Shown in pieces: positions 33,335 to 53,136 of a stretch of 64,000 bases of DNA. Under the pieces are notes generated by a model. The model searched no databases. It saw nothing but the letters and a program-made list of their open reading frames with translations, and was not told the DNA's origin. The stretch lies in assembly GCA_035529855.1 (NCBI GenBank), contig DATKVX010000044.1, positions 12,189-76,188 of the forward strand. The letters are read 5' to 3'. This DNA comes from a bacterium. GTDB lineage: Bacteria > RBG-13-66-14 > B26-G2 > WVWN01. Every line of letters begins with the position of its first letter. Positions within the stretch are counted from its first letter, which is position 1. A program made the translations under genes and the position numbers.

Positions 33335-33365
33335 ACGTCCTGAATTAACCGTACTCGGATTTCCC

Positions 33366-33390
33366 GGCCCGCCGCGGCCGGTTTTTAACG
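33366..33390 (+). terminator. Rho-independent terminator (CCGGCCcgccgcGGCCGG-TTTTT)
   Basis: Hairpin plus T-run after the 32741..33334 gene. Confidence 0.7.
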
Positions 33391-33481
33391 TACGCCACGG
33401 CCGGAAAACACTTTATCGGCGGCGGCCGTTATGTTATAAATTCGAGTTTGGACGCCGGCCTTCTACCCGCGCCTGCGAACG

Positions 33482-35425
33482 ATGCCCGCCATAACAAACG
33501 TCAAACCCTTCGGCACGCTAGCCGACGACGACTACCGCGAGATAGGCTTCCGCGGCGGCCTCGAGATCCACCAACAACTCCTGACCGCCTCCAAGCTCTT
33601 CTGCCGCTGCCCCGCGGGCCTTTACTCGTACGACTACGACGCCAAGATCCTGCGCCACATGCGGCCTACCCTCTCCGAAATGGGCGAGTACGACGGCACC
33701 GCGCTCATGGAATTCAAGACTCGCAAGAACATAATCTACCGCACCAAGCAGAAGAGCTGCTGCACCTACGAGATGGACGATACGCCCCCCTTCGATATGG
33801 ACGAGGAATCCATCGACGCCGGCCTGAAGGTCTCGCTGCTGTTGAATTGCAACGTCGTCGCCGAGATGCACATCATCCGCAAACAATACCTCGACGGCTC
33901 CATCCCCACCGGTTTCCAACGTACCGCCATCGTGGGCGTCGAAGGTTACGTGCCGTATCGGGGCCGGCGCATCGGCATCAAACAGCTCGCGGTGGAGGAA
34001 GACTCTTGCCGCGAGGTGAGCGACGAGGGCCACGAACGGACCTACCTCACCGACCGCCTGGGCATGCCGCTCATCGAAACCGTTACCCACCCCGATATGG
34101 AGACGCCGTGGGAAATCGCCGAGGTGGGGCAACTCCTGCGCCGCCTCACCCGTTCCACCGGCCTCGTGCGCACCGGCATCGGCGCGGCCCGCGAGGACGT
34201 AAACGTGTCCGTCGCCGGCGGCACCCGCGTCGAGATCAAAGGCGTGCCGCGCCTCAAGGCCATACCGCGCCTCGTCCACAATGAGGCCATGCGGCAGCGG
34301 GCCCTACTCGACATACGCGCCGAGCTGAAGCGCCGAGGGATAACGGCCAGGTCTTTCCGAGCCGCGGTGGAGGACGTGTCGGGCGAATTCGCGAAAAATG
34401 CGCGCCGGCCCCCCGGCCGGGCCGTCCTGGACGGCGGCCGCGTCTACGCCGTGGCGCTCCGCGGTTACCGCGGCATCCTCGGCGCCCGCACCCAGGAGAC
34501 CAAGCACTTCGTGGACGAGATATCGGACCGGGTACGCGTCGTAGCATGCCTCGACCGGCTGCCGAATATCTTCGACGACGAGACCTCGCGCCGTCGTATG
34601 GACGGAGCTATCTGGCGCCGCCTGCGCCGCAAGCTTAAAACCGACCGCGGCGACGTCGTCGTGCTGGTGTGGGGGCCGCCGGCCGACGCCCGCCTGGGCG
34701 CCGACGAGGTCGTACTCCGCGCGCGGGAGGCCACGCTGGGCGTGCCGTCCGATACGCGCCAGGCCCTGGCCGACGGCACCAACGGCTTCGAACGGATCTT
34801 GCCCGGGCCGGACCGGATGTACCCCGATACCGACCGGCCGCCCATCACAATATCGGAAGAACGCGTCGCCGCGCTGGCGGCGGACCTCCCGGAACCGATC
34901 TGGGCGCGCGAAGAGCGCTACCGGGAGGGGGGCGTCCCGGAGGATTGCATCGCGCCGCTCGCCGCGTCGCGTTGGGTCCGTACGTTCGAAAAAGCCGTAA
35001 ACGAGTACGGCGTCGAGGCCAAATTCGCGGCCACGGTATTCATGCACAAGTTGAAGGGGTGGCGGCGGCGGGGGCGGCCCGTGGACGAGCTGGCCGAGGG
35101 CGACGTCGAAAGGGCGTTTTCCCTTTATGGCCGGGGAAAGATTACGCGGGAAGGCGTCGTCGCGGCGCTCGAGGCTCACGTGTCCCGCGGCGTGCCGCTG
35201 CGCCGCGCCCTCAACGACCTGCGACACGGCCGGGAAGCGAGGGAACGCGTCGCCGCCGCCGTAAAAAGAGTAAAACGAAAAGTCAAAAGACGCCGCTTCC
35301 CCGCCGGCCCCGCGGCGGTAAAGCGCTTCGCCATGGGCGAGCTAATGGCCGAGTTCCGGGGGCTGATACCCGGCGCCGAGTTGGCCCAAATCGCGACGGA
35401 AGAAATATCGCCGGCTGCTGGATAA
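33482..35425 (+). CDS. gatE: Archaeal-type Glu-tRNA(Gln) amidotransferase subunit E
   Basis: N-terminal GLEIHQQL…KLFCRCP GatB/E catalytic signature. 647-aa length with a large central insertion and a GatB_YqeY-like tail, which fits GatE rather than the roughly 480-aa GatB. Partner gatD lies downstream. Confidence 0.7.
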   Translation: MPAITNVKPFGTLADDDYREIGFRGGLEIHQQLLTASKLFCRCPAGLYSYDYDAKILRHMRPTLSEMGEYDGTALMEFKTRKNIIYRTKQKSCCTYEMDDTPPFDMDEESIDAGLKVSLLLNCNVVAEMHIIRKQYLDGSIPTGFQRTAIVGVEGYVPYRGRRIGIKQLAVEEDSCREVSDEGHERTYLTDRLGMPLIETVTHPDMETPWEIAEVGQLLRRLTRSTGLVRTGIGAAREDVNVSVAGGTRVEIKGVPRLKAIPRLVHNEAMRQRALLDIRAELKRRGITARSFRAAVEDVSGEFAKNARRPPGRAVLDGGRVYAVALRGYRGILGARTQETKHFVDEISDRVRVVACLDRLPNIFDDETSRRRMDGAIWRRLRRKLKTDRGDVVVLVWGPPADARLGADEVVLRAREATLGVPSDTRQALADGTNGFERILPGPDRMYPDTDRPPITISEERVAALAADLPEPIWAREERYREGGVPEDCIAPLAASRWVRTFEKAVNEYGVEAKFAATVFMHKLKGWRRRGRPVDELAEGDVERAFSLYGRGKITREGVVAALEAHVSRGVPLRRALNDLRHGREARERVAAAVKRVKRKVKRRRFPAGPAAVKRFAMGELMAEFRGLIPGAELAQIATEEISPAAG

Positions 35426-35449
35426 GGGTACAGCCGGGAGGATGCCGAT

Positions 35450-36289
35450 ATGGAACCGCTTACGAAAGCGTCGGAATACGTCATCGGGGCTGGGAAGGCA
35501 TATCACCTTCTCGAGCTCAGCCTCGCCGGCGTCGACGTACCGCGAGCCCTGGCCGACCTCGTCGCCGAAATCACCGGCTCCCAAAACGACGACGGCTCCT
35601 TCGTCGGCACGCGCGCCACAGGGGAACCGGGGAGCGTCCCCGTCACCGCCGGCGTGGTGGAAATACTCGCCCGGGAGGGCGCCGCCGACGCCGCGACGAA
35701 GGGCGCGGCCTGGCTCGCGGCGATGCAGCGGCCCGACGGCGGCTTCTGCGAGAACCCGGCGCTGGCGGCCGACCTCAAACCGGAATGGGATTGGTTCTCG
35801 GCCCAAAACGCGGTGACGTGGATAACGGGCGACGCGATCGTGGCGCTCGCGGCCGTAGGCGTTTTCGATAAAAATATTACCCTCGCCCGGAATTTCCTGT
35901 TGCGGACGCGTAACAAGGACGGCGGTTGGCCGGGGCAGGTGGCGCCGGACTACCCGGACCGGACGGACTTGTGGACCATCCCGGGCGTCGTGCGGGGCCT
36001 CCTGGCGGCGGGGATCGCCCCCAACCACGACGCCTTCGCCGGCCTATCCGCAGCGCTGGCCCGTCAGAAGGAACGCTGGCGCAACCCGGTCGAAAATCCG
36101 CTGCCGGCCTTCCTCGCCCTCGGCCGGCGCGGGACCGACGGCGACGTCCAAGAATGTTTAAAGTTACTGGCCCAAACGCAAAACGACGACGGCGGTTGGC
36201 CGTACCTCGCGGGCGACGAATCGCATCCCGACCCGACAACGGCCGTCGTCGCGCTGCTCGCGAAGTATAGGCTCTCGTTACCCGCTTGA
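35450..36289 (+). CDS. Prenyltransferase/squalene-oxidase-repeat (alpha/alpha-toroid) protein
   Basis: Repeated QNDDGSF / QRPDGGF / RNKDGGW / QNDDGGWPY motifs, the canonical terpenoid cyclase / protein prenyltransferase beta-subunit repeat. 279 aa. Confidence 0.65.
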   Translation: MEPLTKASEYVIGAGKAYHLLELSLAGVDVPRALADLVAEITGSQNDDGSFVGTRATGEPGSVPVTAGVVEILAREGAADAATKGAAWLAAMQRPDGGFCENPALAADLKPEWDWFSAQNAVTWITGDAIVALAAVGVFDKNITLARNFLLRTRNKDGGWPGQVAPDYPDRTDLWTIPGVVRGLLAAGIAPNHDAFAGLSAALARQKERWRNPVENPLPAFLALGRRGTDGDVQECLKLLAQTQNDDGGWPYLAGDESHPDPTTAVVALLAKYRLSLPA

Positions 36290-36336
36290 AGAACCGGGCG
36301 CGTACTACCCCCACTCTTTATATGAGGTAACGCGGC

Positions 36337-37740
36337 ATGGCGAAAAAGGAAACGGAGCAAGACCTTTACAAAGGCTACCGCGGCGCCGCGCTCAAATGCC
36401 TTAAGAAATACGGCGTCAAGGTTTGGAGCGACGTCGTCATCGACTCGGGCCGGGGCCGCTTCGAGGGAAGGGTACTACCCCGCGCCGAGTCCGGTGACGA
36501 CCAGCACATCGTCATCAAGATCGCCTCCGGGTACAACGTCGGCGTCGCCGCCGCTTCTATAACCGGCATAGAAGAAACCGGCCGCACCGTCGCCCATTAC
36601 AAGATTCCCGAGAAGGAGTTCCCGTTTAAAAAAGGCCAGCCGTTCGTGAAGCTTCTGGGTACCGGCGGCACCATCGCCTCCCGCCTGGACTACCGCACCG
36701 GCGCCGTCATCCCGGCCTTCACGCCCGGCGAGCTCTACGGCGCGGTCCCGGAATTGGCCGACATCTGTAACCTCCGGACCGAAAAGCTCTTCGGCGTCTT
36801 CTCCGAAAACATGGGCGCCGAGGAATACGTCGTCCTGGCCGAGGCCATCGCCCGCGAGATCAAGAAGGGCGCGGACGGCATCGTCGTAGGCCACGGCACC
36901 GATACCATGCACCACACCGCGGCGGTCCTATCGTTCATGGTGCAGAACCCCCCCGTCCCCATCGTCCTCGTCGGCAGCCAGCGCTCCAGCGACCGCCCCT
37001 CCTCCGACGCCGCGCTCAACCTCATCCACGCCGTCAAGGCCGCCGCGGAATCGGACATCGCCGAGATAATGGTATGCATGTTCGGGCCTACCTCGGACAT
37101 CTACGGCCTCCTCCACCGCGGCACCCGCGTCCGCAAGATGCACTCGTCCTACCGGTCGACCTTCCGCACCATCGCCGACGTCCCTCTAGCGACGGTGGAC
37201 CGCGAGTGCATCACGCCGCTGCGCGACGACTACGCCCGCCGCCGCCCGGGCGACCGCAAATGCGTCCTGAACACCGCCTTCGAAGAACGAGTGGCGCTTA
37301 TATATTATTACCCCAACATGCACCCCGACATCTTCGACGCGCTCGTCGACCTGGGCTACCGCGGCATCGTCATCGCCGGGACCGGCCTGGGCCACGTCAA
37401 CAAGCCCTGCTATCCGGCGCTCAAGCACGCCCGGGAGGCCGGCGTCGCCGTCTATATGACGGTTCAGACGCTGTGGGGTTACGTCCACATGGACGTCTAC
37501 GAGACGGGGCGCGATATGCAAACCCTAGGCGTCATCCCGGCCGAGAATATGCTGCCCGAAGTCGCGTACGTCAAGCTGTGCTGGGCGCTGGGCCAGACCG
37601 ACGACCTCGACGAAGTCAAGCGGATAATGCTCACCCCGGTCGCCGGCGAAATCACCGCCCGGGAACCCACCAACGGCTACCTCATCCTCCAGGGCGGCCT
37701 ACCCGAGGTCGAGGAGTTCATCAGCGGCCACTGGAAATAG
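36337..37740 (+). CDS. gatD: Archaeal-type Glu-tRNA(Gln) amidotransferase subunit D (asparaginase-like)
   Basis: About 90-aa N-terminal domain containing SGYNVGV, then the L-asparaginase threonine motif LLGTGGTIAS and the second Thr/Lys/Asp motifs. 467 aa. Confidence 0.7.
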   Translation: MAKKETEQDLYKGYRGAALKCLKKYGVKVWSDVVIDSGRGRFEGRVLPRAESGDDQHIVIKIASGYNVGVAAASITGIEETGRTVAHYKIPEKEFPFKKGQPFVKLLGTGGTIASRLDYRTGAVIPAFTPGELYGAVPELADICNLRTEKLFGVFSENMGAEEYVVLAEAIAREIKKGADGIVVGHGTDTMHHTAAVLSFMVQNPPVPIVLVGSQRSSDRPSSDAALNLIHAVKAAAESDIAEIMVCMFGPTSDIYGLLHRGTRVRKMHSSYRSTFRTIADVPLATVDRECITPLRDDYARRRPGDRKCVLNTAFEERVALIYYYPNMHPDIFDALVDLGYRGIVIAGTGLGHVNKPCYPALKHAREAGVAVYMTVQTLWGYVHMDVYETGRDMQTLGVIPAENMLPEVAYVKLCWALGQTDDLDEVKRIMLTPVAGEITAREPTNGYLILQGGLPEVEEFISGHWK

Positions 37741-37756: not shown

Positions 37757-37787
37757 TAAAAAGGCCGGCCCGCGGGCCGGTTTTTTA
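37757..37787 (+). terminator. Rho-independent terminator (AAAAAGGCCGGCCCgcgGGCCGGTTTTTT)
   Basis: Perfect hairpin with a T-run after gatD. Confidence 0.8.
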
Positions 37788-39213: not shown

Positions 39214-39750
39214 TTAACCCAAGCAAGCGCCGTAGGCGAAGAGGTCGCCCGCCAGATAGATGTCCATCTGTACGCGCGAGAACGGCCTCGCCGCCGCGAG
39301 CTTACCGCGCGTCCGATTTTCCAACTCGCCCGTCTGAAAGTTGACCCTCAAAACGTCGCCCGCCGCGAGCTCCAATTTAACCAAGTCGGGGCATTCCACC
39401 AAAGGCCAGCCGGCGTTTATCGCGTTCCGCTTGTAGATGGCGCCGAAGGAGATGCCGACGATGCCGGCGACGCCCAGCGCGCGGAAGCAGTCGACGGCGT
39501 GCTGTCGGCTCGAGCCCGCGCCGAAGTTCGCGCCCACCGCCAAGATGTCGCCGCGCTTCGCCTCCGCCGGGAAATCTTCCCAGCCCGCGAGGTTGCCGAA
39601 AGCGTACCGGCCCATTTCGCCGACTTCCGTTTCGGCGAGGTAGGCGTTGTGGTAGATCTGGTCCGTATCGACGTCGTTCAGATAAGCCCCCGACGCGTCG
39701 ACGACGGGCCACACGCGGCCCTCTATTACCAGCGGCCCCGCCACAATCAC
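39214..39750 (-). CDS. leuD: 3-isopropylmalate/homoaconitate dehydratase small subunit (type 2, archaeal-like)
   Basis: Only the C-terminal 178 codons of ORF 39214..40494 are real. The GTG start overlaps the leuC stop (GTGA) and GGGAGGTG lies upstream. LeuD motifs GANFGAGSSRQHAV…ISFGAIYKRNAINAG. Confidence 0.7.
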   Translation of the reverse strand: MIVAGPLVIEGRVWPVVDASGAYLNDVDTDQIYHNAYLAETEVGEMGRYAFGNLAGWEDFPAEAKRGDILAVGANFGAGSSRQHAVDCFRALGVAGIVGISFGAIYKRNAINAGWPLVECPDLVKLELAAGDVLRVNFQTGELENRTRGKLAAARPFSRVQMDIYLAGDLFAYGACLG

Positions 39751-40994
39751 GCCACCTCCCGCGGGTCGGTAATGCTCCCCATCAGCGCCGAGGCCGCGGC
39801 CGTAGCCGGCGAACAGAGGTACGTCTCGCCGGCGCCCTGTTTGCCGGGGAAGTTGCGATTGGAGGTCGAGACCTGGACCTCTCCTTTGCCGGTCATACCG
39901 ATTTGGCCCTGGGCGCAGCCGCCGCAGCCGGCGTTGGAGACGACGAATCCGTAGCCGAAGAGCTCCGCGGCCAGCCCCTCCGCCAGCATCGCGCCGTAGA
40001 CGCGACGCGTCGCCGGGACGGCGTACGCCACCACGCCGCCGGCGACGGGCCGACCCGACATCACCCGGGCGACGGCGCGGAAGTCCTCCACCCGACCGTT
40101 GGTGCACGAGCCGAAGAAGGCCGAGCCTATTTCCTTCCCGGCGACCTCGCTCGCGGCTTTGACGTTGGCCGGCGACGGCGGGCACGCCACCAGCGGCTCG
40201 AGGCCGTCGACGTCGAGCTCGTACGTCGCCTCGTAGGAGGCATCCTCGTCGGCATAGACGCCCCGCACTTCCGCCCCCGCGGCCCCCTCGCACCACGCGA
40301 GCACCTCCTCGCTCGGCGGGATGAAAATAGCTATGGCGCCCATCTCCGTCGCCATCGACGCGACGGTGACCCGCTCCTCGACGGAGAGGGCGTCCGCGGC
40401 GGGCCCGTACAACTCCACCGCCTTGCCCAACAGGCCGCTCGAGCCGAACTCGCGGAGCATCGCGAGCGCCACGTCCTTGGCCGTCGTAGGCCACTTGTAT
40501 TTACCTTTCAATACGACTTTTACCGAAGGCGGGACCTCGAGCCAGGTACGGCCGGTGCGGAAGGCGAACGTTATGTCGGCGTCGCCCATCCCCTGGCCCA
40601 GGCAGCCGACGGCGCCCACGACGTTCATGTGGCTGTCGGTATTGACCACCGTCCCGCCCGGGCGCGCCAGCCCCTCCTCCATCAAGACGTGCGAGCCTAT
40701 GCCGGCGTCGACGTCGTATACCTTAATGCCCTGCCGCGCGGCGAACTCGCGGCAGAGTTGTTGGTTGTTGGCGTAGGGGATATCCTTGGCGGGGACGACG
40801 CAGTCGAAGGTAAAGAACGTCCGCGAGGCATCGGCCACCGGCATAGAGGTATAATGTCGGTCGAAGCTTCTAACGACGCTCGCGCCGCCGAAGTCGCGCG
40901 CGGCGCGGACGTCAAGCTCGAGCCAGACGGTAGCGCCCGGGTAAACCTCGTCGCCCGAGTGAGCGGCGATGATTTTTTCTATAATAGCAGGCAC
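39747..40994 (-). CDS. leuC: 3-isopropylmalate/homoaconitate dehydratase large subunit (type 2, ~415 aa)
   Basis: Aconitase-family motifs (NTDSHMN, FGSCTNGR, CGGCAQGQ, SNRNFPGKQG). Confidence 0.8.
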   Translation of the reverse strand: MPAIIEKIIAAHSGDEVYPGATVWLELDVRAARDFGGASVVRSFDRHYTSMPVADASRTFFTFDCVVPAKDIPYANNQQLCREFAARQGIKVYDVDAGIGSHVLMEEGLARPGGTVVNTDSHMNVVGAVGCLGQGMGDADITFAFRTGRTWLEVPPSVKVVLKGKYKWPTTAKDVALAMLREFGSSGLLGKAVELYGPAADALSVEERVTVASMATEMGAIAIFIPPSEEVLAWCEGAAGAEVRGVYADEDASYEATYELDVDGLEPLVACPPSPANVKAASEVAGKEIGSAFFGSCTNGRVEDFRAVARVMSGRPVAGGVVAYAVPATRRVYGAMLAEGLAAELFGYGFVVSNAGCGGCAQGQIGMTGKGEVQVSTSNRNFPGKQGAGETYLCSPATAAASALMGSITDPREVA

Positions 40995-41016
40995 TTCTAT
41001 CGGGGGTAAATCGCGC

Positions 41017-41451
41017 CTATCTCTTTTTTAAATTTTCGGTTCCCACTTTCGTACTGCCTTTCCCCGCCCACGTGCCGTCGAGGGAGCCGTCCGCCTTTAC
41101 CGCGTACGCGACGACGCCGTAGCCCTGCGGCCCGGCGAAGCCGACCACGAAGGTATTCCCCTTCAGGATGCCGGCGCCCTCGTAGCCGAGCTTCCCGTCG
41201 AAGTACCACATCACGCCGTACGCGTCGCCCTTGCGGGAAACCGTCACGTCGCACTCGTAGGAGCCGCCTTCGGGGTTGGTGCCGGAGCCGGTATACTTGC
41301 CCGCGACGCCGGCGGCGCTTACCGGTTCCTTCCCGCCCTCGCCGAAGGGCAACGGCCCACCCGGGCCCTCTCTCATCTCCTTCAACTTTTTACAGGCGCA
41401 AAAGGAGCACGCCAGGGCGAGCACCGCCGCCAAGCGTAACCACTTCTCCAC
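41017..41451 (-). CDS. Small lipoprotein, tandem paralog A
   Basis: Lipobox LALAC-S. Shares KYTGSGTNPEGGSYECDV…GDAYGV.W.FDG.LGYEG.GI…GYGVV.Y…DGSL.G.W with the downstream ORF. Confidence 0.55.
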   Translation of the reverse strand: MEKWLRLAAVLALACSFCACKKLKEMREGPGGPLPFGEGGKEPVSAAGVAGKYTGSGTNPEGGSYECDVTVSRKGDAYGVMWYFDGKLGYEGAGILKGNTFVVGFAGPQGYGVVAYAVKADGSLDGTWAGKGSTKVGTENLKKR

Positions 41452-41472
41452 CGTCTTCCTCCGTTCCCGAAG

Positions 41473-41826
41473 CTATTTCTTCGTCAGCGTCTCCCGGCCC
41501 AGGCCGTCGAAACCGGGCGTCGTCCAGATACCTTCCAACGCGCCGTCGCCCTTGATTTCATATACCACCACGCCGTACCCTTGGCCGGAGGCGTAGCCCA
41601 CGCAGAAGAGGCCGTCCTTCACGATGCCGACGCCCTCGTAGCCGAGCGCGCCGTCGAATAACCATTGGACCGCGTATGCGTCGCCCGTCCTGGTTATCTT
41701 GACGTCGCAGGCGTACGAGCCCTGGCCGCCCGGGTTGGTGCCGGCCCCCTTGTACTCGCCGACGACGTCGCCGAAGGCCGCCGCGGCGAGGGCGCACGTT
41801 AAAATCAAAAATCCGAAAACTCTCAT
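41473..41826 (-). CDS. Small secreted protein, tandem paralog B
   Basis: Signal peptide. Clear paralog of 41017..41451. Confidence 0.55.
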   Translation of the reverse strand: MRVFGFLILTCALAAAAFGDVVGEYKGAGTNPGGQGSYACDVKITRTGDAYAVQWLFDGALGYEGVGIVKDGLFCVGYASGQGYGVVVYEIKGDGALEGIWTTPGFDGLGRETLTKK

Positions 41827-41868
41827 CGAAGACCTCCTACATTCGATATCCCGTCGATAGGGATAACC

Positions 41869-42768
41869 TCAGCGCCACTCTACCTCGGGCGCGCCGCGGC
41901 CTATGGCGCGGCGGTATTTATATTTGGGATAGCCGAGCGCTAACGCGGCGTAGACGGCGTGGTCTTCCGGCAAACCCAGCGCTTCCCTGACCTCTTCGCT
42001 GCGGGCCGCGGCCGCGGTGAGCCAACCGACGAAGCACGTCCCCAGGCCCATGGCCGTCGCCATCATGACGAGCTGGGCGGCGGCGTAGTACGCCGTTTCC
42101 CGCGGCATTATCGCCGCCACCGGCGCGTGGAGGACGAGGACCACCGGCGCGTCGTGGAAGAGGTCGTCGCGGCCCGCGTCGTACGCCTCGACCAACCGCT
42201 TCATATCGTCCACCAAGGCGTAGGCTCCCAGCTTATCCTCGCGTTCGGCCACGGCGCCGTAAACGGTGCGGAGTATGGGGTTCTTCAGGCGCCGCACCGC
42301 TGTCCGGTGCCACTCCGCCGTCGCGTCGCGGACGCGGCGGATGCGCTTGGCCTCGCTCAGCGCAAGCACGCGAACCGGCCTGAGGTTGTGCGCGCTGGGG
42401 TACGACGACAGCGCCCGGCGTACCAACTCCTCCACCGCTTCGCGCGTAACCGGCTTGTCGCGGAAGACGCGGACCGAGCGTCGCGCGCGCAAGAGCGTCT
42501 CCAGCGCCGCCACGGTGGGGACCTTCCTGGCGCCGAGGGTCTTTATCGTGCCCTCCGGGTAGGCCTCGTGTTCGATGGCTTCCTCCGGGCACAGCGCGAC
42601 GCAGTGGCCGCAGCTGATGCAACGCTCCGGGTACGACGCTACGGCGAACTCCTCCAGCTCGTAGACGTCCTGGGGGCACGCCTCGACGCAGACGCCGCAG
42701 GCGTTGCATTTTACTTCGTCGACGTTTATGGCCGGCGGCTCGAGCGCCGGCTGGCTTTTATCAGTCAT
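41869..42768 (-). CDS. Ferredoxin-nitroreductase fusion protein (N-terminal 2x[4Fe-4S], C-terminal nitroreductase fold)
   Basis: CNACGVCVEACP and CISCGHCVALCP motifs, then a nitroreductase-like domain. Confidence 0.7.
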   Translation of the reverse strand: MTDKSQPALEPPAINVDEVKCNACGVCVEACPQDVYELEEFAVASYPERCISCGHCVALCPEEAIEHEAYPEGTIKTLGARKVPTVAALETLLRARRSVRVFRDKPVTREAVEELVRRALSSYPSAHNLRPVRVLALSEAKRIRRVRDATAEWHRTAVRRLKNPILRTVYGAVAEREDKLGAYALVDDMKRLVEAYDAGRDDLFHDAPVVLVLHAPVAAIMPRETAYYAAAQLVMMATAMGLGTCFVGWLTAAAARSEEVREALGLPEDHAVYAALALGYPKYKYRRAIGRGAPEVEWR

Positions 42769-42849
42769 ATCCCTGCGTAACGTAAGTCCCGTAAGTTCTC
42801 TTCGGAACGGTTTTAATAAGGAAGAGTTAACCTCCGGCGTTAGCCGATT

Positions 42850-43074
42850 CTATAACTCTAAAAATTCCCGTACCGTCAAACCGGCCTGTTTAATAATCGC
42901 TCGCAACGTCCCCTCCGTTATGTCGCCCCCGCGGTGGAGTACCATCGTACGCCGACGGCTAGCCGGGTTCCGCCAAATTTTGCGACTACCTTTGGCGCTT
43001 CGGTCGAACTTGAAGCCGGCTCGCCGTAATTTCGCCGCTACGTCGGCGTACTTACAACCCGCCAGTCGCCCCAC
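42850..43074 (-). CDS. hicA: Type II toxin HicA (mRNA interferase)
   Basis: 74 aa, YcfA/HicA-like (…GSRKIWRNP…HRGGDI..GTLRAIIKQAGLT). Confidence 0.75.
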   Translation of the reverse strand: MGRLAGCKYADVAAKLRRAGFKFDRSAKGSRKIWRNPASRRRTMVLHRGGDITEGTLRAIIKQAGLTVREFLEL

Positions 43075-43316
43075 TAAACCGCCACCGGCACCAGCAGCTC
43101 AAACTCGCCTTCGGCCGCCTCTTTCAACTTGGGCGGCACCGGGTCGCCGTGCTCCAGGTACGACTCGTACAGCTTACGCACCGCGTCCTGGGCGAACTCC
43201 ACCGTTTCGGCGATGGTCCGCCCTTCGACCACCAGCCCCGGGACGTCGTCGCTGGTGGCGACGTAACCCCCGTCGCCGAGGGGCTCGAGATGCAGTTTTA
43301 TTAATACTTCCGCCAT
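43074..43316 (-). CDS. hicB: Type II antitoxin HicB (UPF0150 fold)
   Basis: 80 aa, HicB-like N-terminal RNase-H-like fold (MAEVLIKLHLEPLGDGGYVATSDDVPGLVVEGRTIAE). Its stop overlaps the hicA start. Confidence 0.7.
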   Translation of the reverse strand: MAEVLIKLHLEPLGDGGYVATSDDVPGLVVEGRTIAETVEFAQDAVRKLYESYLEHGDPVPPKLKEAAEGEFELLVPVAV

Positions 43317-43335
43317 TTCCGACTCCTCGGATTTA

Positions 43336-44454
43336 TCAAACCCGCGCCGCCACAGCTTCCGCCATCTCCAGCGTGGAGCTTGAGCCGCCCATATCGTACG
43401 TGCGGACGCGGCCCTCCGCGATGACCGCGGCGACGGCGTTCTCCAAGGCCGCGGCCTTGTCCTCCTCGCCCAGGTACTCCAGCATCATCCGCGTCGCGAG
43501 CAGCGTCGCCGTCGGGTTGACCTTGGACTGGCCCGCGTACTTGGGCGCCGAGCCGTGCGTGGGCTCGAAGACGGCGTAGTCGTCGCCTATGTTGCCGGCG
43601 CAGGCGAAGCCCAGGCCGCCGACGAGCTGCGCGGCCTCGTCCGAGATGATGTCGCCGAACATGTTCTCGGCCACCAACACGTCGTAGTCCTGCGGGTTCT
43701 TGACGAGCCACATCGCCATAGCGTCGACGTTGGCCTCCCACAGTTCGACGTTCGGGTAGTCCTTCGCCACCTCGCGCGCGGTCCGGACCATCAGGCCGCC
43801 GGTCTCCCGCAGGACGTTGGGCTTCTCCACAATCGTTACCGAGCGGCGGCCTTTCTTCTCCGCGAACTCGAACCCGGCGCGCACGATGCGCGCGCACGCC
43901 TTCTTCGTCATTATCCGCGTCGAGATGGCGAGCTCGTCCAGCGGCACGCCCGCGAACGCCGCCATCTTCTTGTGGTTGGCCATAAGGCAATCGTAGACCG
44001 CCGGCGGGACCGGAGACCACTCCACGCCGGCGTACAGGCCCTCGGTATTCTCGCGGAAGATGACGAGGTCGACGTCGTCGCGGTAGTTGAGCGGGTTGCC
44101 GGCGTACGCCTTGCACGGCCGCATGTTGACGTAAAGGTCGAACTCCTGGCGCAGGCGGACGATGGGCGAATAGTAGACGTAGCCCTTATCCTGCAGCTCG
44201 GGCGCGAGCTCGCGCGCGGCCTCGTCCTTGGGCTTGGAGGTGATGGCGCCGAATAGCGCGCAATCGGTTCCGCGCATAAGGTCCTTGGTGCGTTCGGGCA
44301 GCGGGTTGCCCTCCGTGCGCCAGAACTCCCAGCCGATGTCGCCGCCGACGTACTCGGCGTCGAGCGCGAGGCGCTCCAGCACGAGCCGCGCCGCCTCCAT
44401 AACGTCGCGGCCTATGCCGTCGCCCGGCAGCCACGCAATTCTGTATTTGGCCAT
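43336..44454 (-). CDS. Isocitrate/isopropylmalate/homoisocitrate dehydrogenase family protein
   Basis: Beta-decarboxylating dehydrogenase motifs (NMFGDIISDEAAQLVGGLG…). 372 aa. Confidence 0.75.
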   Translation of the reverse strand: MAKYRIAWLPGDGIGRDVMEAARLVLERLALDAEYVGGDIGWEFWRTEGNPLPERTKDLMRGTDCALFGAITSKPKDEAARELAPELQDKGYVYYSPIVRLRQEFDLYVNMRPCKAYAGNPLNYRDDVDLVIFRENTEGLYAGVEWSPVPPAVYDCLMANHKKMAAFAGVPLDELAISTRIMTKKACARIVRAGFEFAEKKGRRSVTIVEKPNVLRETGGLMVRTAREVAKDYPNVELWEANVDAMAMWLVKNPQDYDVLVAENMFGDIISDEAAQLVGGLGFACAGNIGDDYAVFEPTHGSAPKYAGQSKVNPTATLLATRMMLEYLGEEDKAAALENAVAAVIAEGRVRTYDMGGSSSTLEMAEAVAARV

Positions 44455-44544
44455 AAAACCTCTCGGGGGAACTTGCTTTGGCGTATATATTAAATTAAAA
44501 TAGGCCGGTTCTCAATTACTTTCCGAGCCGGCAGGGGTGCCCCT

Positions 44545-45237
44545 ATGACGGACGACGTTAAAAAAGCGGCTCTGGCCGCTTCGCCGCTCTTCAAAAACCT
44601 CGCCCCGGCGGACGTGGGCCGCGTCGTCGGATTCTCCGTCTTCCGCGAGCTGGAGAAGGGAGAAGTCGTCTTCCGCGAGGGGGACGACGCAGCGGCCTTC
44701 TACGTCGTCGCCTCGGGCCGGGTCAAGGTTTTCAAGGAATCGGTCGACGGCCGTGAGCTTATCATAAAAATTATGCGCGCGGGGGACCTGGTAGGCGAGG
44801 CCGCCGCGCTGGCGGGCGTCCCCTACCCGGCGACGGCCCAGGCCCTCGACGACGCGGCCGCGGTAGAAATCCCGCGCCGCGAGTTCGTGGCGTTGATCGA
44901 AAACGAGCCGGACTTAGCGCTCAACATCATCGCCGCCCTCTCGGTCCGTCTGAACCAGATAAGCGCGGTACTCGAGAAGCTCACCCTTAAAGACGTGCCG
45001 GCGCGGCTGGCGTCGTACCTTCTGGAACGGGCGCGGGCCGGCGCCGACGGCCGGGAGTCCGTCGAGCTGGACGTGACTAAGACGTCGCTCGCGGCGGAAT
45101 TGGGAACGGTCCCGGAGACGCTGAGCCGGGCGCTAAGGCGGTTCGCCGAAGCGGGCCTGGTAGCGTCCAAGGGCAGGCGTATAATCATTTTAGATAAAGC
45201 CTCGCTCGAGCTCGTCGCCGGCAGTCCGAACGGCTAG
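44545..45237 (+). CDS. Crp/Fnr-family transcriptional regulator
   Basis: cNMP-binding-like beta-roll (VFREGD…FYVVASGRVKV) and a C-terminal HTH (TKTSLAAELGTVPETLSRALRRF). Confidence 0.8.
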   Translation: MTDDVKKAALAASPLFKNLAPADVGRVVGFSVFRELEKGEVVFREGDDAAAFYVVASGRVKVFKESVDGRELIIKIMRAGDLVGEAAALAGVPYPATAQALDDAAAVEIPRREFVALIENEPDLALNIIAALSVRLNQISAVLEKLTLKDVPARLASYLLERARAGADGRESVELDVTKTSLAAELGTVPETLSRALRRFAEAGLVASKGRRIIILDKASLELVAGSPNG

Positions 45238-45250
45238 CGGCCGGCCCGGA

Positions 45251-45277
45251 AAAACTACGAGCCTTGACCCAGGTCAA
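45251..45277 (+). promoter_or_regulatory. Perfect palindrome cCTTGACccagGTCAAGg, a TTGAC-N4-GTCAA FNR/CRP-type box centred about 41.5 bp upstream of a putative TATACT -10. It also forms the stem of the crp-gene terminator (followed by TTTTTT).
   Basis: Inverted repeat and T-run read directly. Spacing to the TATTATACT element was counted. Confidence 0.55.
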
Positions 45278-45352
45278 GGCTTTTTTATCCCCGGCCTATT
45301 ATACTGGATACGACGTTAAGGGAATAATCGAATCCGAAACAGGAGGTCCGTA

Positions 45353-46150
45353 ATGACCAAAGCAACCAGAAAAATCGTCGAAATAGACGAAGGACTTTGC
45401 GACGGCTGCGGCCTGTGCGTTCCGTCCTGCGCCGAGGGCGCCATCCGGATCGTCGACGGCAAGGCCCGGCTGGCGAGCGAAATTTATTGCGACGGCCTGG
45501 GCGCCTGCCTGGGCGAGTGTCCGCAAGGCGCCATTACCCTGGAGGAACGGCCCGCCGAGGAGTTCGACGCCGCCGCGGTGGAAGAACACCTACAAGGGCT
45601 CGGCCGCGAAGGAGGCACGGACCGGCACGAACACGAGGCCGCGGACGCGGCCACCGGGAGCCACACCGCCGACCACACCTTCAGCTGCCCGGGCGCGCGT
45701 ACGATGGTCTTGAAGCCGCGCGAAGACGAAGAGGGCACCGAGGTCGAGGCGACCGTAGAGGAGAAGTTGAAATCGGAACTCGGCCAGTGGCCCGTCAAGC
45801 TCTACCTCGTCGACCCCAACGCGCCGTATTTCCGGGACGCCGAGCTGCTGGTCTCCGCCGATTGCGCCCCCTTGGCCTACGCCGCCTTCCACCCCGACTT
45901 CCTCCGGGGGAAGGCCGTCGTCATCGGTTGCCCCAAGTTCGACGACGTCGCGCTCTACCGCGACAAGCTGACGGCCATACTGCGAGAAAACGACGTCCGC
46001 AAAGTCACGATCCTGCACATGGAAGTGCCCTGCTGCTTCGGCCTGGTCCAGGTGGCGAAGGAGGCGGTCGCGGCCTCGGGCAAGGATATACCCTTCGAGG
46101 ACGTGACGGCGACGATACGGGGCGAGGCAACGTCCGCCGCTGGCGTTTAA
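45353..46150 (+). CDS. 4Fe-4S ferredoxin-domain protein with a C-terminal Cys-containing domain of unknown function
   Basis: CDGCGLCVPSC…CDGLGACLGECP motifs. C-terminal GCPKFDD…EVPCCFG. Confidence 0.55.
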   Translation: MTKATRKIVEIDEGLCDGCGLCVPSCAEGAIRIVDGKARLASEIYCDGLGACLGECPQGAITLEERPAEEFDAAAVEEHLQGLGREGGTDRHEHEAADAATGSHTADHTFSCPGARTMVLKPREDEEGTEVEATVEEKLKSELGQWPVKLYLVDPNAPYFRDAELLVSADCAPLAYAAFHPDFLRGKAVVIGCPKFDDVALYRDKLTAILRENDVRKVTILHMEVPCCFGLVQVAKEAVAASGKDIPFEDVTATIRGEATSAAGV

Positions 46151-46169
46151 CCCCGGCCGAGGGTAACGA

Positions 46170-46200
46170 AAAGCCCGCCGCGACGGCGGGCTTTTTAAAT
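46170..46200. terminator. Bidirectional terminator (AAAAGCCCGCCGcgaCGGCGGGCTTTTT)
   Basis: Perfect hairpin between convergent genes. Confidence 0.8.
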
Positions 46201-46215
46201 CGTCCCTGAAAACCG

Positions 46216-46695
46216 CTACTCCTCGCCGGCAAAGGCGTCAACGAACTTCGCCAGCGCGTCCCTCTTGGCGTCGGCGTCCTCCGTGGGGTCGTAGTACGCC
46301 ACGAGGACGAGCGCGCCGTTGGTCGCGACGGCGAATTCGCGTAGGACGTCCATCGCCAGCAGCTCGGCGTTGCGCTCGGCGCCGTACTCCCGGGCGAGGC
46401 CGTCGTCCGTGAAAGCGAACGCCTCGAGGATCACTTCGGGCCCCGCGCTGCTGTAGACGGCGTGCCACACGCACCCCTCCGGGAATTCGCGCGTGAGGTC
46501 GCCGCGGTTTTCGATGGGAATACCGGCCGACTTGAGCAGCGTCTCCGCGCGCGCCGCCTCCGGGAAGATGAGCTGCGCGGGCCGGGCCGTCTCCGCGACG
46601 GCGGCCTCGTCCCCGCCGGCCTGGCGGCCGTCGCCCTTGCCGCAGGCCGCCGCGATTAAAACGCACGTTACGGTTATGACTGCGAAGTCCCTCAT
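46216..46695 (-). CDS. Hypothetical lipoprotein
   Basis: Lipobox IAAAC-G, 159 aa. Confidence 0.45.
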   Translation of the reverse strand: MRDFAVITVTCVLIAAACGKGDGRQAGGDEAAVAETARPAQLIFPEAARAETLLKSAGIPIENRGDLTREFPEGCVWHAVYSSAGPEVILEAFAFTDDGLAREYGAERNAELLAMDVLREFAVATNGALVLVAYYDPTEDADAKRDALAKFVDAFAGEE

Positions 46696-47186
46696 TTATG
46701 CGCCAACTCCTTTTTAACGTAGGGCACCAGGCCGCCCGCCTCGAGTATGCCGAGCACCTCGGGCGGCAGCGGCGCGAATTCGTACTTCGAGCCGTCCGCG
46801 GCGGTCAGCTCGCCCGTCTCGAAATCAATAGTTATCTCGTCGCCGCCATTTATATATGGTATCGCTTCGGGGGCCGCGACCGTCGGTAGGCCGGCGTTGA
46901 TGGCGTTGCGGAAAAATATCCGCGCGAACGACGCCGCTACCACCGCGGCCACGCCGGCGTACTTCAGGCACAACGCCGCCTGCTCGCGGCTCGAGCCGCA
47001 GCCGAAGTTCTTCCCGGCGACGACGATATCCCCCGGCTTCACGTTCTTCGCGAAACCGGCGTCGAGGTCCTCGAGGGCGTGCGAAGCTATTTCGCCCGGA
47101 TCCGTAACGGTATAGGTGTACCGCCCGGGGAAGATGACGTCGGTGTTGACGTCGTCGCCGTACTTCCAGACCTTACCTTTTATCAT
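46692..47186 (-). CDS. leuD: 3-isopropylmalate/homoaconitate dehydratase small subunit, second copy (type 2)
   Basis: GKNFGCGSSREQAALCL…SFARIFFRNAINAG; 164 aa. Confidence 0.8.
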   Translation of the reverse strand: MIKGKVWKYGDDVNTDVIFPGRYTYTVTDPGEIASHALEDLDAGFAKNVKPGDIVVAGKNFGCGSSREQAALCLKYAGVAAVVAASFARIFFRNAINAGLPTVAAPEAIPYINGGDEITIDFETGELTAADGSKYEFAPLPPEVLGILEAGGLVPYVKKELAHK

Positions 47187-47301
47187 CCCGCTTCCCCCGC
47201 AGCGACAACCACGTCGTCAGCATCACGGCGCCGAGGCCGACGAAGAGCAAAAAGGCCAGGACTACCAAGATAATTACGATTAAAAACACCAACGACTCCA
47301 T
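47173..47301 (-). CDS. Candidate 42-aa hydrophobic micro-protein between leuC and leuD (MESLVFLIVIILVVLAFLLFVGLGAVMLTTWLSLRGKRDDKR)
   Basis: ATG 5 nt after the leuC stop. GC3 is about 80% despite AT-rich first and second codon positions. One predicted TM helix. The stop overlaps the leuD start. Not in the ORF track, which omits ORFs under 60 aa. Confidence 0.35.
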   Translation of the reverse strand: MESLVFLIVIILVVLAFLLFVGLGAVMLTTWLSLRGKRDDKR

Positions 47302-47305
47302 GCCA

Positions 47306-48562
47306 TCACGCCCTTACCGTCCGCGGGTCCGTAATCTTCCCATACAAAGCCGAGGCCGCGGCGGTCGCCGGCGAGCACAGATATACCTCGGCCTCGCTCG
47401 AGCCCATGCGGCCGCGGAAGTTGCGATTGGCGGTCGAGAGGCAGACTTCGCCCGCGGCCAATATCCCCTCGTGGGCGCCAAGGCACGGCCCGCAACCCGG
47501 GTTCATAATTACGCAGCCCGCCGCCGCCAGCGTCGCCAGCGCGCCGATGCCCAACGCCTCCAGGTACGTCGCCCGGCTGGCCGGGAAGACGAGGATCCGC
47601 ACGCCGCGCGCCACGCGCCGGTTCCGCAAGATATCCGCCGCCGCCACCAGGTCGTCGACGCGGCCGTTGGTGCACGTCCCGACCACGACCTGGTCCACGC
47701 GCGTCCCGGCGACCTCCGCAACCGGCACGACGTTATCGACCGTATGCGGACACGCCACCCGGGGCCCGAGGCCGGCGACGTCGTAGCTCAGTACGCGTTC
47801 GTACGCGGCGCCGTCGTCCGGCAAGACTTCGTCGTATTCACGGCGCGCCCGTCCGTCGAGGAAGGCGCGCGTCTTCTCGTCCGGCGCGACGTACGCGTTC
47901 TTGGCCCCCATCTCCGCGGCCATGTTGCACAGCGTCATCCGCCCGGACACCGACGTCGCCGCCGCCGTCGCCCCGGCGAACTCCACCGACCGGTAAAGCG
48001 CGCCGTCCGCGCCCTGGTCGCCGATTATATAAAGGATTAAATCCTTGGGGTAAACGTCGGCGCCGAACTCCCCCGCTACTTCCACCCGCAGCGATTCGGG
48101 GCACCGGAGCCACAGCTTGCCGGTGGCGTAGAGCGCCGCCATCTCGGTCCGCCCGATGCCCGCGGCGAACGCGCCCAATGCGCCGTACGACGTCGTATGG
48201 CTGTCCGCCCCCAGAATCAGTTCGCCCGGCAGCGCGAAGCCCTGCTCCGCGAAGACCTGGTGGCATATCCCCTCGCTTATGTCGAAGAAGTGTTCGATGT
48301 CGTTCGCCGCGACGAATTCCCGGATCTCGAGGTGGTTCCGGGCGTACTTCTCCGACGCCGCGGGGACGCAGTGGTCCAGGACGACGACGGCCTTACCCGG
48401 GTCGGCGACGCGCTTCAGGCCGAACGAGGCGAAGGTCTTCGCGATGGCCGCGGTATTGTCGTGGGAAAGGAGGCGGTCCGGCTCGAGCGTGACGATTTCG
48501 CCGGCGGCCACGGGCCGGCCGGCCTTACGAGAAAATATCTTTTCGGCGAAGCTTTGAGGCAT
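47306..48562 (-). CDS. leuC: 3-isopropylmalate/homoaconitate dehydratase large subunit, second copy (type 2)
   Basis: Aconitase-family motifs (GADSHTTSYGALGAFAAGIG, VGTCTNGR, NPGCGPCLG, STANRNFRGRMG). 418 aa. Confidence 0.8.
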   Translation of the reverse strand: MPQSFAEKIFSRKAGRPVAAGEIVTLEPDRLLSHDNTAAIAKTFASFGLKRVADPGKAVVVLDHCVPAASEKYARNHLEIREFVAANDIEHFFDISEGICHQVFAEQGFALPGELILGADSHTTSYGALGAFAAGIGRTEMAALYATGKLWLRCPESLRVEVAGEFGADVYPKDLILYIIGDQGADGALYRSVEFAGATAAATSVSGRMTLCNMAAEMGAKNAYVAPDEKTRAFLDGRARREYDEVLPDDGAAYERVLSYDVAGLGPRVACPHTVDNVVPVAEVAGTRVDQVVVGTCTNGRVDDLVAAADILRNRRVARGVRILVFPASRATYLEALGIGALATLAAAGCVIMNPGCGPCLGAHEGILAAGEVCLSTANRNFRGRMGSSEAEVYLCSPATAAASALYGKITDPRTVRA

Positions 48563-48623
48563 ATCGGCCTTTACAACTTAAACGGCTTTCCCATGCGGTC
48601 AGGTGTTACCACCTGACCGGAGC

Positions 48624-49160
48624 TCACTTCAATTTAAACGGCTCGAAATTTATAAAGTCCGCGTGGTGTATTATTATGGCCTCCGGCGTCGCCCGGGCGC
48701 CCTCGCCCTCGCGGGCGTGCGTCGCGACGACGTGTACCACCGCCGGCGGCAGGCCGAACTCGTAGGCCAGCGCCGCCCCCGAGAACGGGTGCCGGAGCAT
48801 CCGGCCCAGCTCCGACTTGACGAACGCGCCGCCCTCCTCGCGATACTCCAGCAGCTTGCCGACGTCGTGCAGCAGCGCCCCGGCGAGCAAGTGGTCGCGG
48901 TTTATATCCAGCCGGGAACCGTACGTCTCGGCCACCACGGCCGCGACGGCGGCCGCGCATCGCGTTACGGCGCGGGTGTGCTCGAGGTACGTCGCCGGGC
49001 ACGGCTCGAGCAGCAGCGTGAACGGCATCCGCGCCATATCCTCGGGTTGCCAGCCGCCGCGCTCGAGCGCGGCCTCGTAGGCCGCGACGACCTTACCGCG
49101 CAGCGCGTCGTCTTCTATCTCCGCCAACTCCGGCAGGAGCTCGCTTATTTTTTCTTCCAT
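48624..49160 (-). CDS. HD-domain phosphohydrolase
   Basis: H…HD…D metal-binding pattern (LHDVGK…HHADF). Confidence 0.65.
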   Translation of the reverse strand: MEEKISELLPELAEIEDDALRGKVVAAYEAALERGGWQPEDMARMPFTLLLEPCPATYLEHTRAVTRCAAAVAAVVAETYGSRLDINRDHLLAGALLHDVGKLLEYREEGGAFVKSELGRMLRHPFSGAALAYEFGLPPAVVHVVATHAREGEGARATPEAIIIHHADFINFEPFKLK

Positions 49161-49173
49161 AATGCACCTCGAG

Positions 49174-49950
49174 CTAAGTTAAATGCCTTTCGTCCGGGCC
49201 GTCGTACGCCCACGCCGACGGCTCGAGGCGCCGCATAGGCCGCTCGCGCGCCCGCTCCTCGAGAACGTGCGCCAGCCACCCGGGCATGCGCGCCAGGATG
49301 AAGAAGGCGTTGGCGGCGTACGGCTCGAAACCCAGGTCGAAGAGGCACGCCGCGATGGCGCCGTCGACGTTCAGCGGCAGCGCCTTGCCGGTAACGCTCG
49401 CCAGCGGCGCCTCGAGCGCGCGGACCATCGGAATACCCTCGCGCGCCAGGCCCAGCTCCTCCGCCAGCGCGAAGAGCCGCGCCGCCCGCGGGTCGTCGTC
49501 GTGGAGGCGGTGGCCGAAACCCTCCACCCGCCGGCCCGCCTCGCGGTAGCGTTCCACTATCGCCGCCGCGGCCTCCTCCCGTAAGACGCCCGCCTCCTTC
49601 ATCTCGGCTAGCGCCTCGGCCAGCGCGTTCATACATCCCTCGACCGCGCCGCCGTGGAAGCGGTTGACGGCCAGGACCCCGGAGGCCAACGCGGCGTTGA
49701 CCGGCGCGCCGGTAGAGGCCGCCGTGCGCGCCGCCAGCGTGGACGGCGGCGTTACGCCGTGGTCCACCGACGACACCAGTATGGCGTCGAGCAGCTTCCC
49801 CTCAGCCTCGCCGGGCAGCTCGCCCCGCAGCGCGAGCCATACGACCTCGGCGAAGCTCTTGCGGCCCATCAGCTCCTCGATGGGGTATCCGCGGAGGCGG
49901 ATTTTATTCGGGCCGACGTCGGTGATTGCCGTGTGCCATTTATCAACCAT
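49174..49950 (-). CDS. Short citrate-synthase-family protein (citryl-CoA lyase-like)
   Basis: 258 aa, homologous to the citrate synthase C-terminal catalytic domain (…GFGHRLH…DPRA…, PNVDGAIAA). This is the same size class as citryl-CoA lyase from split ATP-citrate-lyase systems. Confidence 0.55.
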   Translation of the reverse strand: MVDKWHTAITDVGPNKIRLRGYPIEELMGRKSFAEVVWLALRGELPGEAEGKLLDAILVSSVDHGVTPPSTLAARTAASTGAPVNAALASGVLAVNRFHGGAVEGCMNALAEALAEMKEAGVLREEAAAAIVERYREAGRRVEGFGHRLHDDDPRAARLFALAEELGLAREGIPMVRALEAPLASVTGKALPLNVDGAIAACLFDLGFEPYAANAFFILARMPGWLAHVLEERARERPMRRLEPSAWAYDGPDERHLT

Positions 49951-49981
49951 AAAAATCTCCCGTTAACAACGCTATGACCTG

Positions 49982-50290: not shown

Positions 50291-50351
50291 CTCGCGCTGC
50301 CGCGTTATCTTGGGCTTCTCGGCCGTCGTTCACCTCTTGCCCGGCGGTTAC

Positions 50352-50759: not shown

Positions 50760-50775
50760 CCGACGAGCTGTTCCG

Positions 50776-53135: not shown

Positions 53136-53136
53136 A

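Follow-up and report, generated by a model that had tools for sequence, protein, structure and literature searches.

A predicted GatDE amidotransferase operon in a bacterium and the clade-specific toroid-repeat gene between its two subunit genes

In the GatDE amidotransferase, GatD hydrolyses glutamine (or asparagine) to supply ammonia, and GatE binds Glu-tRNA(Gln), uses ATP to phosphorylate the gamma-carboxyl group of the attached glutamate, and amidates it to yield Gln-tRNA(Gln). The archaeal complexes of M. thermautotrophicus (2D6F) and P. abyssi (1ZQ1) share one architecture, in which GatD consists of an N-terminal domain and an asparaginase fold, and GatE of a GatB-type core, a GAD/AspRS-like insertion, and a YqeY tail. 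Most bacteria use GatCAB or GlnRS (PMC2330236); GatCAB, which performs the same chemistry on Glu-tRNA(Gln), reads the U1-A72 pair and the size of the D-loop in bacterial tRNA-Gln (PMC2330236), and archaeal GatDE selects Glu-tRNA(Gln) by such features, but with A1-U72 (PMC2330236, PMC9499178). Reviews from 2020–2022 still state that GatDE is exclusive to archaea, and no report of a bacterial GatDE was found in the full-text literature searched, in which subscription papers were not covered, so that a prior description is possible. Here, we describe a gatE–gatD pair with a third gene, encoding a toroid-repeat protein, between the two subunit genes; it lies in a 64,000-nt stretch of the bacterial contig DATKVX010000044.1 (assembly GCA_035529855.1; the whole stretch is hereafter called the window).

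The reading we favor, at a probability of roughly 70%, is that the locus encodes a functional bacterial GatDE together with a co-transcribed toroid protein whose function would be independent of GatDE. Comparison loci and protein clusters are cited by the labels L and P with a number. The unit and its boundaries in the window are as follows:

33364–33386, plus strand: intrinsic terminator at the 5' boundary of the gatE unit, a GC-rich hairpin CCGGCCCGCCGCGGCCGG followed by TTTTT, which ends the upstream 197-aa gene
33411–33441, plus strand: candidate promoter element, CTTTATC...GGCCGTTATGTTATAAAT, ~40 nt 5' of the gatE start codon
33482–35425, plus strand: gatE, 647 aa, GatE (kinase/amidotransferase and tRNA-binding subunit) by profile scores and motifs
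35450–36289, plus strand: toroid-repeat gene, 279 aa, predicted single-domain alpha/alpha-toroid, clade-specific
36337–37740, plus strand: gatD, 467 aa, GatD (asparaginase-type glutaminase, the ammonia source) by profile scores and motifs
37765–37786, plus strand: intrinsic (bidirectional) terminator closing the unit, a palindromic hairpin CCGGCCCGCGGGCCGG followed by TTTTTT

The three same-strand open reading frames (ORFs) reported in a preliminary description of this DNA are all present at these coordinates and lengths, and the terminator it placed after gatD is real on the plus strand. Its proposal of a single unit also agrees with what we found: two bounding terminators, intergenic gaps of 24 nt (gatE–toroid) and 47 nt (toroid–gatD), and a Shine-Dalgarno-like GGAGG/GAGG before each downstream gene. 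From these signals, gatE, the toroid gene, and gatD are predicted to be one terminator-bounded, co-transcribed unit. A counterpart of the hairpin at 33364–33386 was seen in L013, L035, and, more diverged, in L012. The element at 33411–33441 is a candidate promoter judged by sequence conservation, as a similar element stands upstream of gatE in the window, L012, L013, L025, and L027, and, in L035, which lacks gatE at this locus, directly 5' of the toroid gene. Written as CTTTATC...GGCC(G/T)TTATGnTATAAAT, the promoter-like motif occurs in six loci, ~40 nt 5' of the first gene of the unit, be it gatE or the toroid gene.

The assignment of the 647-aa protein to GatE, suggested earlier from its motifs, was confirmed by profile search: it passed both GatE equivalogs of NCBIfam (NF003107, 505.5 bits with a cut-off of 456; TIGR00134, 438.2 bits with a cut-off of 319.55) and fell below all bacterial GatB models, the best of which gave 145.7 bits with a cut-off of 338. 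In the PDB, it is closest to 1zq1_C and 2d6f_C, both archaeal GatE (E ~1e-94), and it aligns end to end with 1zq1_C. The architecture of a GatB-type core, a GAD/AspRS-like insertion, and a YqeY-like tail was recovered, with a Pfam GatB_N match at residues 26–461 (161.6 bits) and weak, sub-threshold matches for the GAD insertion (314–399, 21.1 bits, cut-off 23.4) and the GatB_Yqey tail (501–641, 18.6 bits, cut-off 27). We examined the active-site motif set GLEIH, YEMDDxPP, RKxxxDGS..GFQRT, RxDxNxS, and EIKG; the window protein carries it intact as GLEIHQQL...KLFCRCP, YEMDDTPP, RKQYLDGS..GFQRT, REDVNVSV, and EIKGV, matching P. abyssi GatE in the HMMER alignment, and the set is present in every bacterial locus with covering sequence except L027. 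With GatCAB, the window GatE shares the GatB_N catalytic core; it differs in its large insertion domain, in failing the GatB equivalogs, and in its partner, an asparaginase-type GatD in place of the amidase GatA with GatC.

The 467-aa protein, likewise proposed as GatD, passed both GatD equivalogs (TIGR02153, 510.5 bits, cut-off 324; NF003217, 507.9 bits, cut-off 310) and carries the GatD_N domain (PF18195, 43.4 bits, cut-off 25.7) in front of the asparaginase fold (Pfam Asparaginase and Asparaginase_C). Its closest PDB chains are the GatD chains 2d6f_A (E 1.8e-120) and 1zq1_A (~1e-120), with plain type I asparaginases at ~1e-40. The motifs TGGTIAS, HGTDTM, GSQRSSDRPSSDA, and RVRKMH are intact and include all the catalytic residues examined, namely the Thr of TGGT, the Thr-Asp of HGTDT, and the Lys in RKMH. 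The catalytic motifs of the pair are identical in 18 other bacterial loci and also agree with the archaeal references, which share the Thr/Thr-Asp/Lys set in GatD and, in GatE, GLEIH and R-D-N-S. Ratios of nonsynonymous to synonymous substitution rates (dN/dS) relative to related loci were 0.17–0.26 for GatE and 0.085–0.15 for GatD, consistent with purifying selection. Given the equivalog scores and the presence of GatD_N, the alternative that the pair is a GatB with an ordinary asparaginase was rejected; by profile, domain, and motif evidence, the two window proteins are assigned as genuine GatE and GatD. Longer GatD N-termini occur in the clade, in L025:6879–8456 (525 aa) and L013:10348–11790 (480 aa), as compared to 467 aa in the window, and could be start-codon miscalls or real extensions.

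The host of the locus is bacterial. The preliminary description had stressed the bacterial character of the surrounding genes, and this was upheld by PheS (TIGR00468) and PheT with an FDX-ACB domain, both of bacterial type, and a SpoU/RlmB-like methylase, besides which a Crp-family regulator was found; the type IX secretion system sorting domain that it listed amounts to a weak, sub-threshold match (22 bits, cut-off 27) at the tail of an FG-GAP/FlgD_ig protein. The closest named relatives, with GatE 80% identical, are metagenome-assembled genomes (MAGs) labelled Zixibacteria or “bacterium”. A tRNA scan of the window returned tRNA-Ala(CGC) only, and none of gatCAB, glnS, and asnS was present among the predicted genes scanned (~35 of 57) in the 64-kb window.

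GatDE had been described as an archaeal hallmark, which would have made the locus special for carrying it at all. Neither view holds: the exact window proteins are already in GenBank (HUV86432.1 for GatE, and HUV86433.1), and homologues are annotated in many bacterial MAGs. The best 120 GatE matches (52–100% identity) and the best GatD matches have bacterial source names only, and carriers fall into more than 10 phyla: Aminicenantes, Acidobacteria, Kapabacteria, Ignavibacteriales, Bacteroidota, Myxococcota, Chloroflexota, Planctomycetes, Calditrichales, Marinimicrobia, and Zixibacteria, one MAG among the Calditrichales matches being assigned to Caldithrix abyssi. Most of these loci have gatD immediately 3' of gatE, a linked order in which the bacterial systems differ from archaeal GatDE and which in the window is interrupted by the inserted third gene. 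Active bacterial GatDs are 69–91% identical across phyla and 41–45% identical to M. thermautotrophicus GatD, and bacterial GatEs are 33–37% identical to P. abyssi GatE; given this high mutual and low archaeal identity, the bacterial proteins form a separate, tight clade of their own. Our neighbor-joining trees, with two archaeal references only, rebuilt from PDB alignments, are uninformative on the attachment of this clade, its donor, and the direction of transfer. The window GatDE is, by sequence, assigned as an ordinary member of a large bacterial clade that is already auto-annotated, and the databases appear to be ahead of the reviews in this respect. The surprise expressed in the preliminary description is justified, but it concerns a large class of bacterial genomes rather than this one locus.

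The description of GatDE as archaea-exclusive in reviews would speak for archaeal contamination, or for a chimeric assembly that joined gat genes to bacterial DNA. Nevertheless, at least four independent samples, with independent assemblers, yielded the same 14-kb gene order, on contigs of up to 111 kb, and because independent samples gave the same order, the locus is real and not an assembly artefact or chimera. GC content is uniform across the window, and the GC content at third codon positions of the gat genes (0.82–0.87) matches their neighbours. Several homologues lie within bacterial contigs of 0.4–2.7 Mb or in the complete Zixibacteria chromosome CP070742.1, next to bacterial genes for RecO, FtsX, RodZ, sigma-70, and an outer-membrane beta-barrel. 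Together with the distance of the bacterial clade from the archaeal references, these observations refute contamination, to which we give practically no credence.

Gene linkage in other phyla bears on the function of bacterial GatE. Three loci, one in the complete Zixibacteria chromosome CP070742.1 (L024), one in a further MAG of Zixibacteria (L023), and one in a MAG of Ignavibacteria (L017), share a run of genes in which gatE precedes a small ORF, a gltX of bacterial type (TIGR00464, 549 bits in L024), and tRNA-Gln(CUG). In L023 and L024, tRNA-Glu(CUC) lies upstream, and no gatD occurs within 6 kb of gatE in any of the three. The clusters are located as follows:

L024, 2795–11099: gatE-gltX-tRNA-Gln cluster
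L023, 2927–12257: gatE-gltX-tRNA-Gln cluster
L017, 165–5016: gatE-gltX-tRNA-Gln cluster

In these clusters, the tRNA-Gln genes encode U1-A72 and a D-loop of 7 nt; G1-C72 and one more D-loop base are found in the neighbouring tRNA-Glu genes. This clustering provides indirect support for a transamidation role of GatE. In the mechanism we propose, a bacterial-type non-discriminating GluRS would misacylate a bacterial-type tRNA-Gln (U1-A72, short D-loop), GatD would release ammonia, and GatE would convert Glu-tRNA(Gln) to Gln-tRNA(Gln) by the textbook route. Bacterial GatDE would then depart from the textbook scheme only in its host, in the first base pair of its likely tRNA-Gln substrate (U1-A72, as opposed to the A1-U72 recognised by archaeal GatDE), and in its likely partner, a bacterial-type GluRS.

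The protein encoded between the two subunit genes had been labelled a prenyltransferase/squalene-cyclase-repeat protein with five QxxDGGW/F repeats. The repeats and the fold-level likeness stand, although we count four clear [QR]xx[DE]G[GS][FW] repeats (residues 45, 93, 154, and 244), and the enzyme-family motifs are missing. SQHop_cyclase_C is the only Pfam family above its cut-off (33.8 bits, covering part of the profile); Prenyltrans (PF00432) reached 22.2 bits with a cut-off of 26.5, below what a prenyltransferase beta subunit would show. No D.DD, the DxDD general acid of class II terpene cyclases, occurs anywhere in the protein, and neither Cys 100 nor Cys 236 is conserved in an alignment of 25 sequences, so there is no conserved Zn-site Cys. 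Identity to the beta/gamma domains of class II terpene cyclases (squalene-hopene cyclase, drimenyl diphosphate synthase, MstE) and to protein prenyltransferase beta subunits is at most 24%, and below 20% in Foldseek; unlike these enzymes, the toroid protein is a single 279-aa domain, acidic, and predicted to be cytoplasmic. Fold searches returned generic (alpha/alpha)6 neighbours only, and with (alpha/alpha)6 glycosidases and thioester domains scoring nearly as high as the cyclases and prenyltransferases, the likeness to the latter is at the fold level only. Terpene cyclase or prenyltransferase activity was rejected on motifs.

The toroid family is narrow, with ~40 clusters at 57–100% identity and nothing further by word-seeded search; a full hidden Markov model search with the family gave nine representatives below 1e-30 and a handful of full-length relatives of 277–302 aa. 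The alignment contains 68 invariant columns, including the four Q/RxxDGG(W/F) repeats, DRTDLW, NHD, and NP.ENPL. No signal peptide was seen, and the isoelectric point (pI) is 4.8, as compared to 9.4 for the window GatE. Most probably, the toroid protein is an (alpha/alpha)6 module, soluble and acidic, that binds a ligand or a protein, rather than a terpene cyclase or prenyltransferase.

Sister lineages carry GatDE in very different states. The syntenic GatE-like (648 aa) and GatD-like (470 aa) proteins of L027 are full-length and 36% and 42% identical to those of the window, respectively, and have lost essentially every catalytic motif:

GatD, TGGTIAS in the window: FGGASPL in L027
GatD, HGTDTM in the window: HARATV in L027
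GatD, RKMH in the window: RQLH in L027
GatE, GLEIHQQL in the window: AVVIRQPL in L027
GatE, YEMDDTPP in the window: YELGELPP in L027
GatE, REDVNVSV in the window: RGDIRLAV in L027
GatE, EIKGV in the window: TIRAF in L027

Three dead GatD relatives, P0310, P0311, and P0313, have lost the asparaginase catalytic residues; P0311 and P0313, two clusters besides the L027 protein, are degenerate at the Thr and Thr-Asp motifs, and P0313 was found in assembly GCA_964547385.1 and two other samples. All three dead gatD genes come immediately after the toroid gene and are themselves followed by an AsnA gene. Compared among themselves, the dead GatDs have a dN/dS of 0.27–0.49 at dS > 1, approximately threefold relaxed relative to active GatD and not neutral. 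The dead GatE/GatD loci are the following:

L027, 2614–8355: dead GatE/GatD locus
L031, 376–1800: dead GatE/GatD locus
L032, 502–1932: dead GatE/GatD locus
L033 and L034: further dead GatE/GatD loci

A third state is represented by L035, a close relative in which proteins of the flanking 408- and 197-aa genes are 80% and 77% identical to those of the window. At L035:1320–5372, the conserved terminator and promoter-like element directly precede the toroid gene, and a convergent radical-SAM gene and AsnA come after it; tblastn found no gatE or gatD remnant in this locus, a single 5.9-kb contig. The clade therefore holds a series in which GatDE is intact, dead but maintained, or absent from the locus, and because of the dead pairs and L035, GatDE is dispensable in part of the clade.

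This series, together with the gene neighbourhoods, indicates how closely the toroid gene is tied to GatDE. In the window, L006, L012, L013, L025, and L027, the toroid gene begins 1–33 nt 3' of gatE, and it is missing from all gatE–gatD pairs that we examined beyond one narrow clade, among them the adjacent pairs of Aminicenantes, Phycisphaerae, and several unclassified MAGs. Within the narrow clade, the whole neighbourhood is syntenic, with GT2 and the 211-, 408-, and 197-aa genes upstream and saccharopine dehydrogenase and aconitase genes downstream, so that the adjacency of the toroid gene and gatE is expected from shared descent alone. Unrelated genes surround the distant full-length homologues P0161 and P0162, with no gat genes beside them, and none of 10 distant relatives scanned showed a toroid–Gat domain fusion, one having a GNAT fusion. 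The dN/dS of the toroid gene is 0.145–0.31 where GatDE is intact and 0.135–0.26 where it is dead or absent.

Neither co-occurrence with GatDE across lineages nor loss or relaxation upon loss of GatDE, as would be expected of an obligate accessory subunit, was observed. The earlier suggestions of a new accessory subunit or a repurposed amidation system thus find no support in the middle gene, which is confined to one clade, kept under unchanged constraint alongside dead or absent GatDE, and without conserved linkage to gat genes either outside the clade or in L035 inside it. We propose that the ancestor of this narrow clade, which is related to Zixibacteria-labelled MAGs, acquired the gene at its position between gatE and gatD. 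On the basis of this clade restriction, the synteny, the unlinked relatives, L035, and the unchanged dN/dS, it looks like a co-transcribed, lineage-specific passenger with a function independent of GatDE.

A radical-SAM/SPASM-type gene (475–489 aa, with weak NirJ/AhbD/mycofactocin-maturase-like matches) is convergent to the toroid gene in three lineages, its 3' end overlapping the toroid gene in two of the three:

L013, 8827–10254, minus strand: radical-SAM gene
L027, 5387–6856, minus strand: radical-SAM gene
L035, 2350–3804, minus strand: radical-SAM gene

A homologue with 32% identity is encoded in the window at 19838–21271 (minus strand), 14 kb away.

Several observations weigh against a functional GatDE accompanied by an independent passenger. 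The adjacency of 1–33 nt, within the same terminator-bounded unit, is found in all seven distinct loci examined that have both the toroid gene and gatE, and the toroid gene stays with gatE even where the opposite-strand radical-SAM gene separates gatD (L013, L027). Dead GatD, and dead GatE in L027, also remain beside it. With the strong conservation of the toroid protein and its pI opposite to that of the basic GatE, these points would fit a third subunit of GatDE, or an adaptor, specific to this lineage; as an acidic partner it might, for instance, stabilise the complex, bridge it to GluRS, or gate tRNA access. We consider such a subunit unlikely: the gene is missing from all pairs examined outside one clade, inherited synteny explains the adjacency inside the clade equally well (the upstream 211-, 408-, and 197-aa genes are conserved too), distant homologues are neither linked nor fused to gat genes, and in L035 the toroid gene is kept under unchanged constraint with no gatE or gatD at the locus. 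The genome of L035 might carry gatDE elsewhere, the locus being known from its single short contig.

The dead GatDs beside the toroid gene also stay full-length under purifying selection, and a dead GatD and the toroid protein could still work together non-catalytically. A possible pseudo-enzyme GatDE subfamily is suggested for L027 and L031–L034, and a residual non-catalytic role of the dead pairs is a matter of speculation. The stronger proposal, that the toroid protein of this clade physically associates with GatE/GatD and that the dead pairs form a non-catalytic pseudo-enzyme complex, such as a tRNA- or GluRS-binding scaffold around the toroid protein, seems to us decidedly improbable.

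Finally, the decay in sister lineages hints that GatDE might be redundant with GatCAB or GlnRS. If one of these is also present in the host, or if the window pair has been repurposed for non-translational tRNA-dependent amidation, GatDE would not be the Gln-tRNA(Gln) route for protein synthesis. The use of GatCAB or GlnRS by most bacteria and the loss of catalytic residues (L027, L031–L034) or of the pair from the locus (L035) are consistent with this. Nevertheless, all catalytic motifs of the window pair are intact and GatD in particular is under strong constraint, the gatE-gltX-tRNA-Gln clusters of other phyla point to the canonical role, and no biosynthetic or cell-wall genes accompany the unit among its neighbours in the window. 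Redundancy or repurposing is, in our judgment, rather improbable, and a functional GatDE with an independently acting toroid protein remains our preferred reading.

GatDE is cited as an archaea-only signature and has been used in arguments on the last universal common ancestor, on archaeal tRNA-Gln co-evolution, and on the lack of GlnRS in archaea. The occurrence of intact GatDE operons across many phyla of bacteria, where their tRNA-Gln substrate apparently has U1-A72 and is charged by a bacterial GluRS, calls for these arguments to be re-examined. Many phyla may have bacterial GatDE as their sole Glu-tRNA(Gln) amidotransferase, in which case the enzyme could no longer count as an archaeal signature. 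Bacterial GatDE also offers a natural system for studying how the tRNA identity rules of GatE were switched. That GatDE is not confined to archaea is a general point of importance and seems not to have been reviewed; the window itself adds little beyond one more bacterial example. The by-products of the analysis are of greater interest, the most unusual being the catalytically dead but maintained GatDE pairs. The intact, dead, and absent states within one clade are a ready-made series for studying the loss or repurposing of an aminoacyl-tRNA pathway, and a pseudo-enzyme complex, if true, would mean that a tRNA-dependent amidotransferase had given rise to a new function.

Two other regions of the window are worth recording. 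The segment 30862–33334 holds a trio of genes conserved 5' of gatE throughout the clade (also in L005, L006, L025, L027, and L035) and cut off from gatE by the terminator; it encodes a 211-aa coiled-coil/DUF1664-like protein, a 408-aa protein with weak adenylate/guanylate-cyclase and TPR matches, and a 197-aa protein without a family match. Downstream, 49174–54684 (minus strand) and 39214–48562 contain an ATP-citrate-lyase-like set (ATP-grasp_2/citrate-binding, CoA-ligase, and citrate-synthase C-terminal domains), two large subunits of the aconitase/homoaconitase family, and an AksF/LEU3_arch-like dehydrogenase. Taken together, the gene content of 39214–54684 suggests a reductive tricarboxylic acid cycle or 2-oxoacid elongation chemistry.

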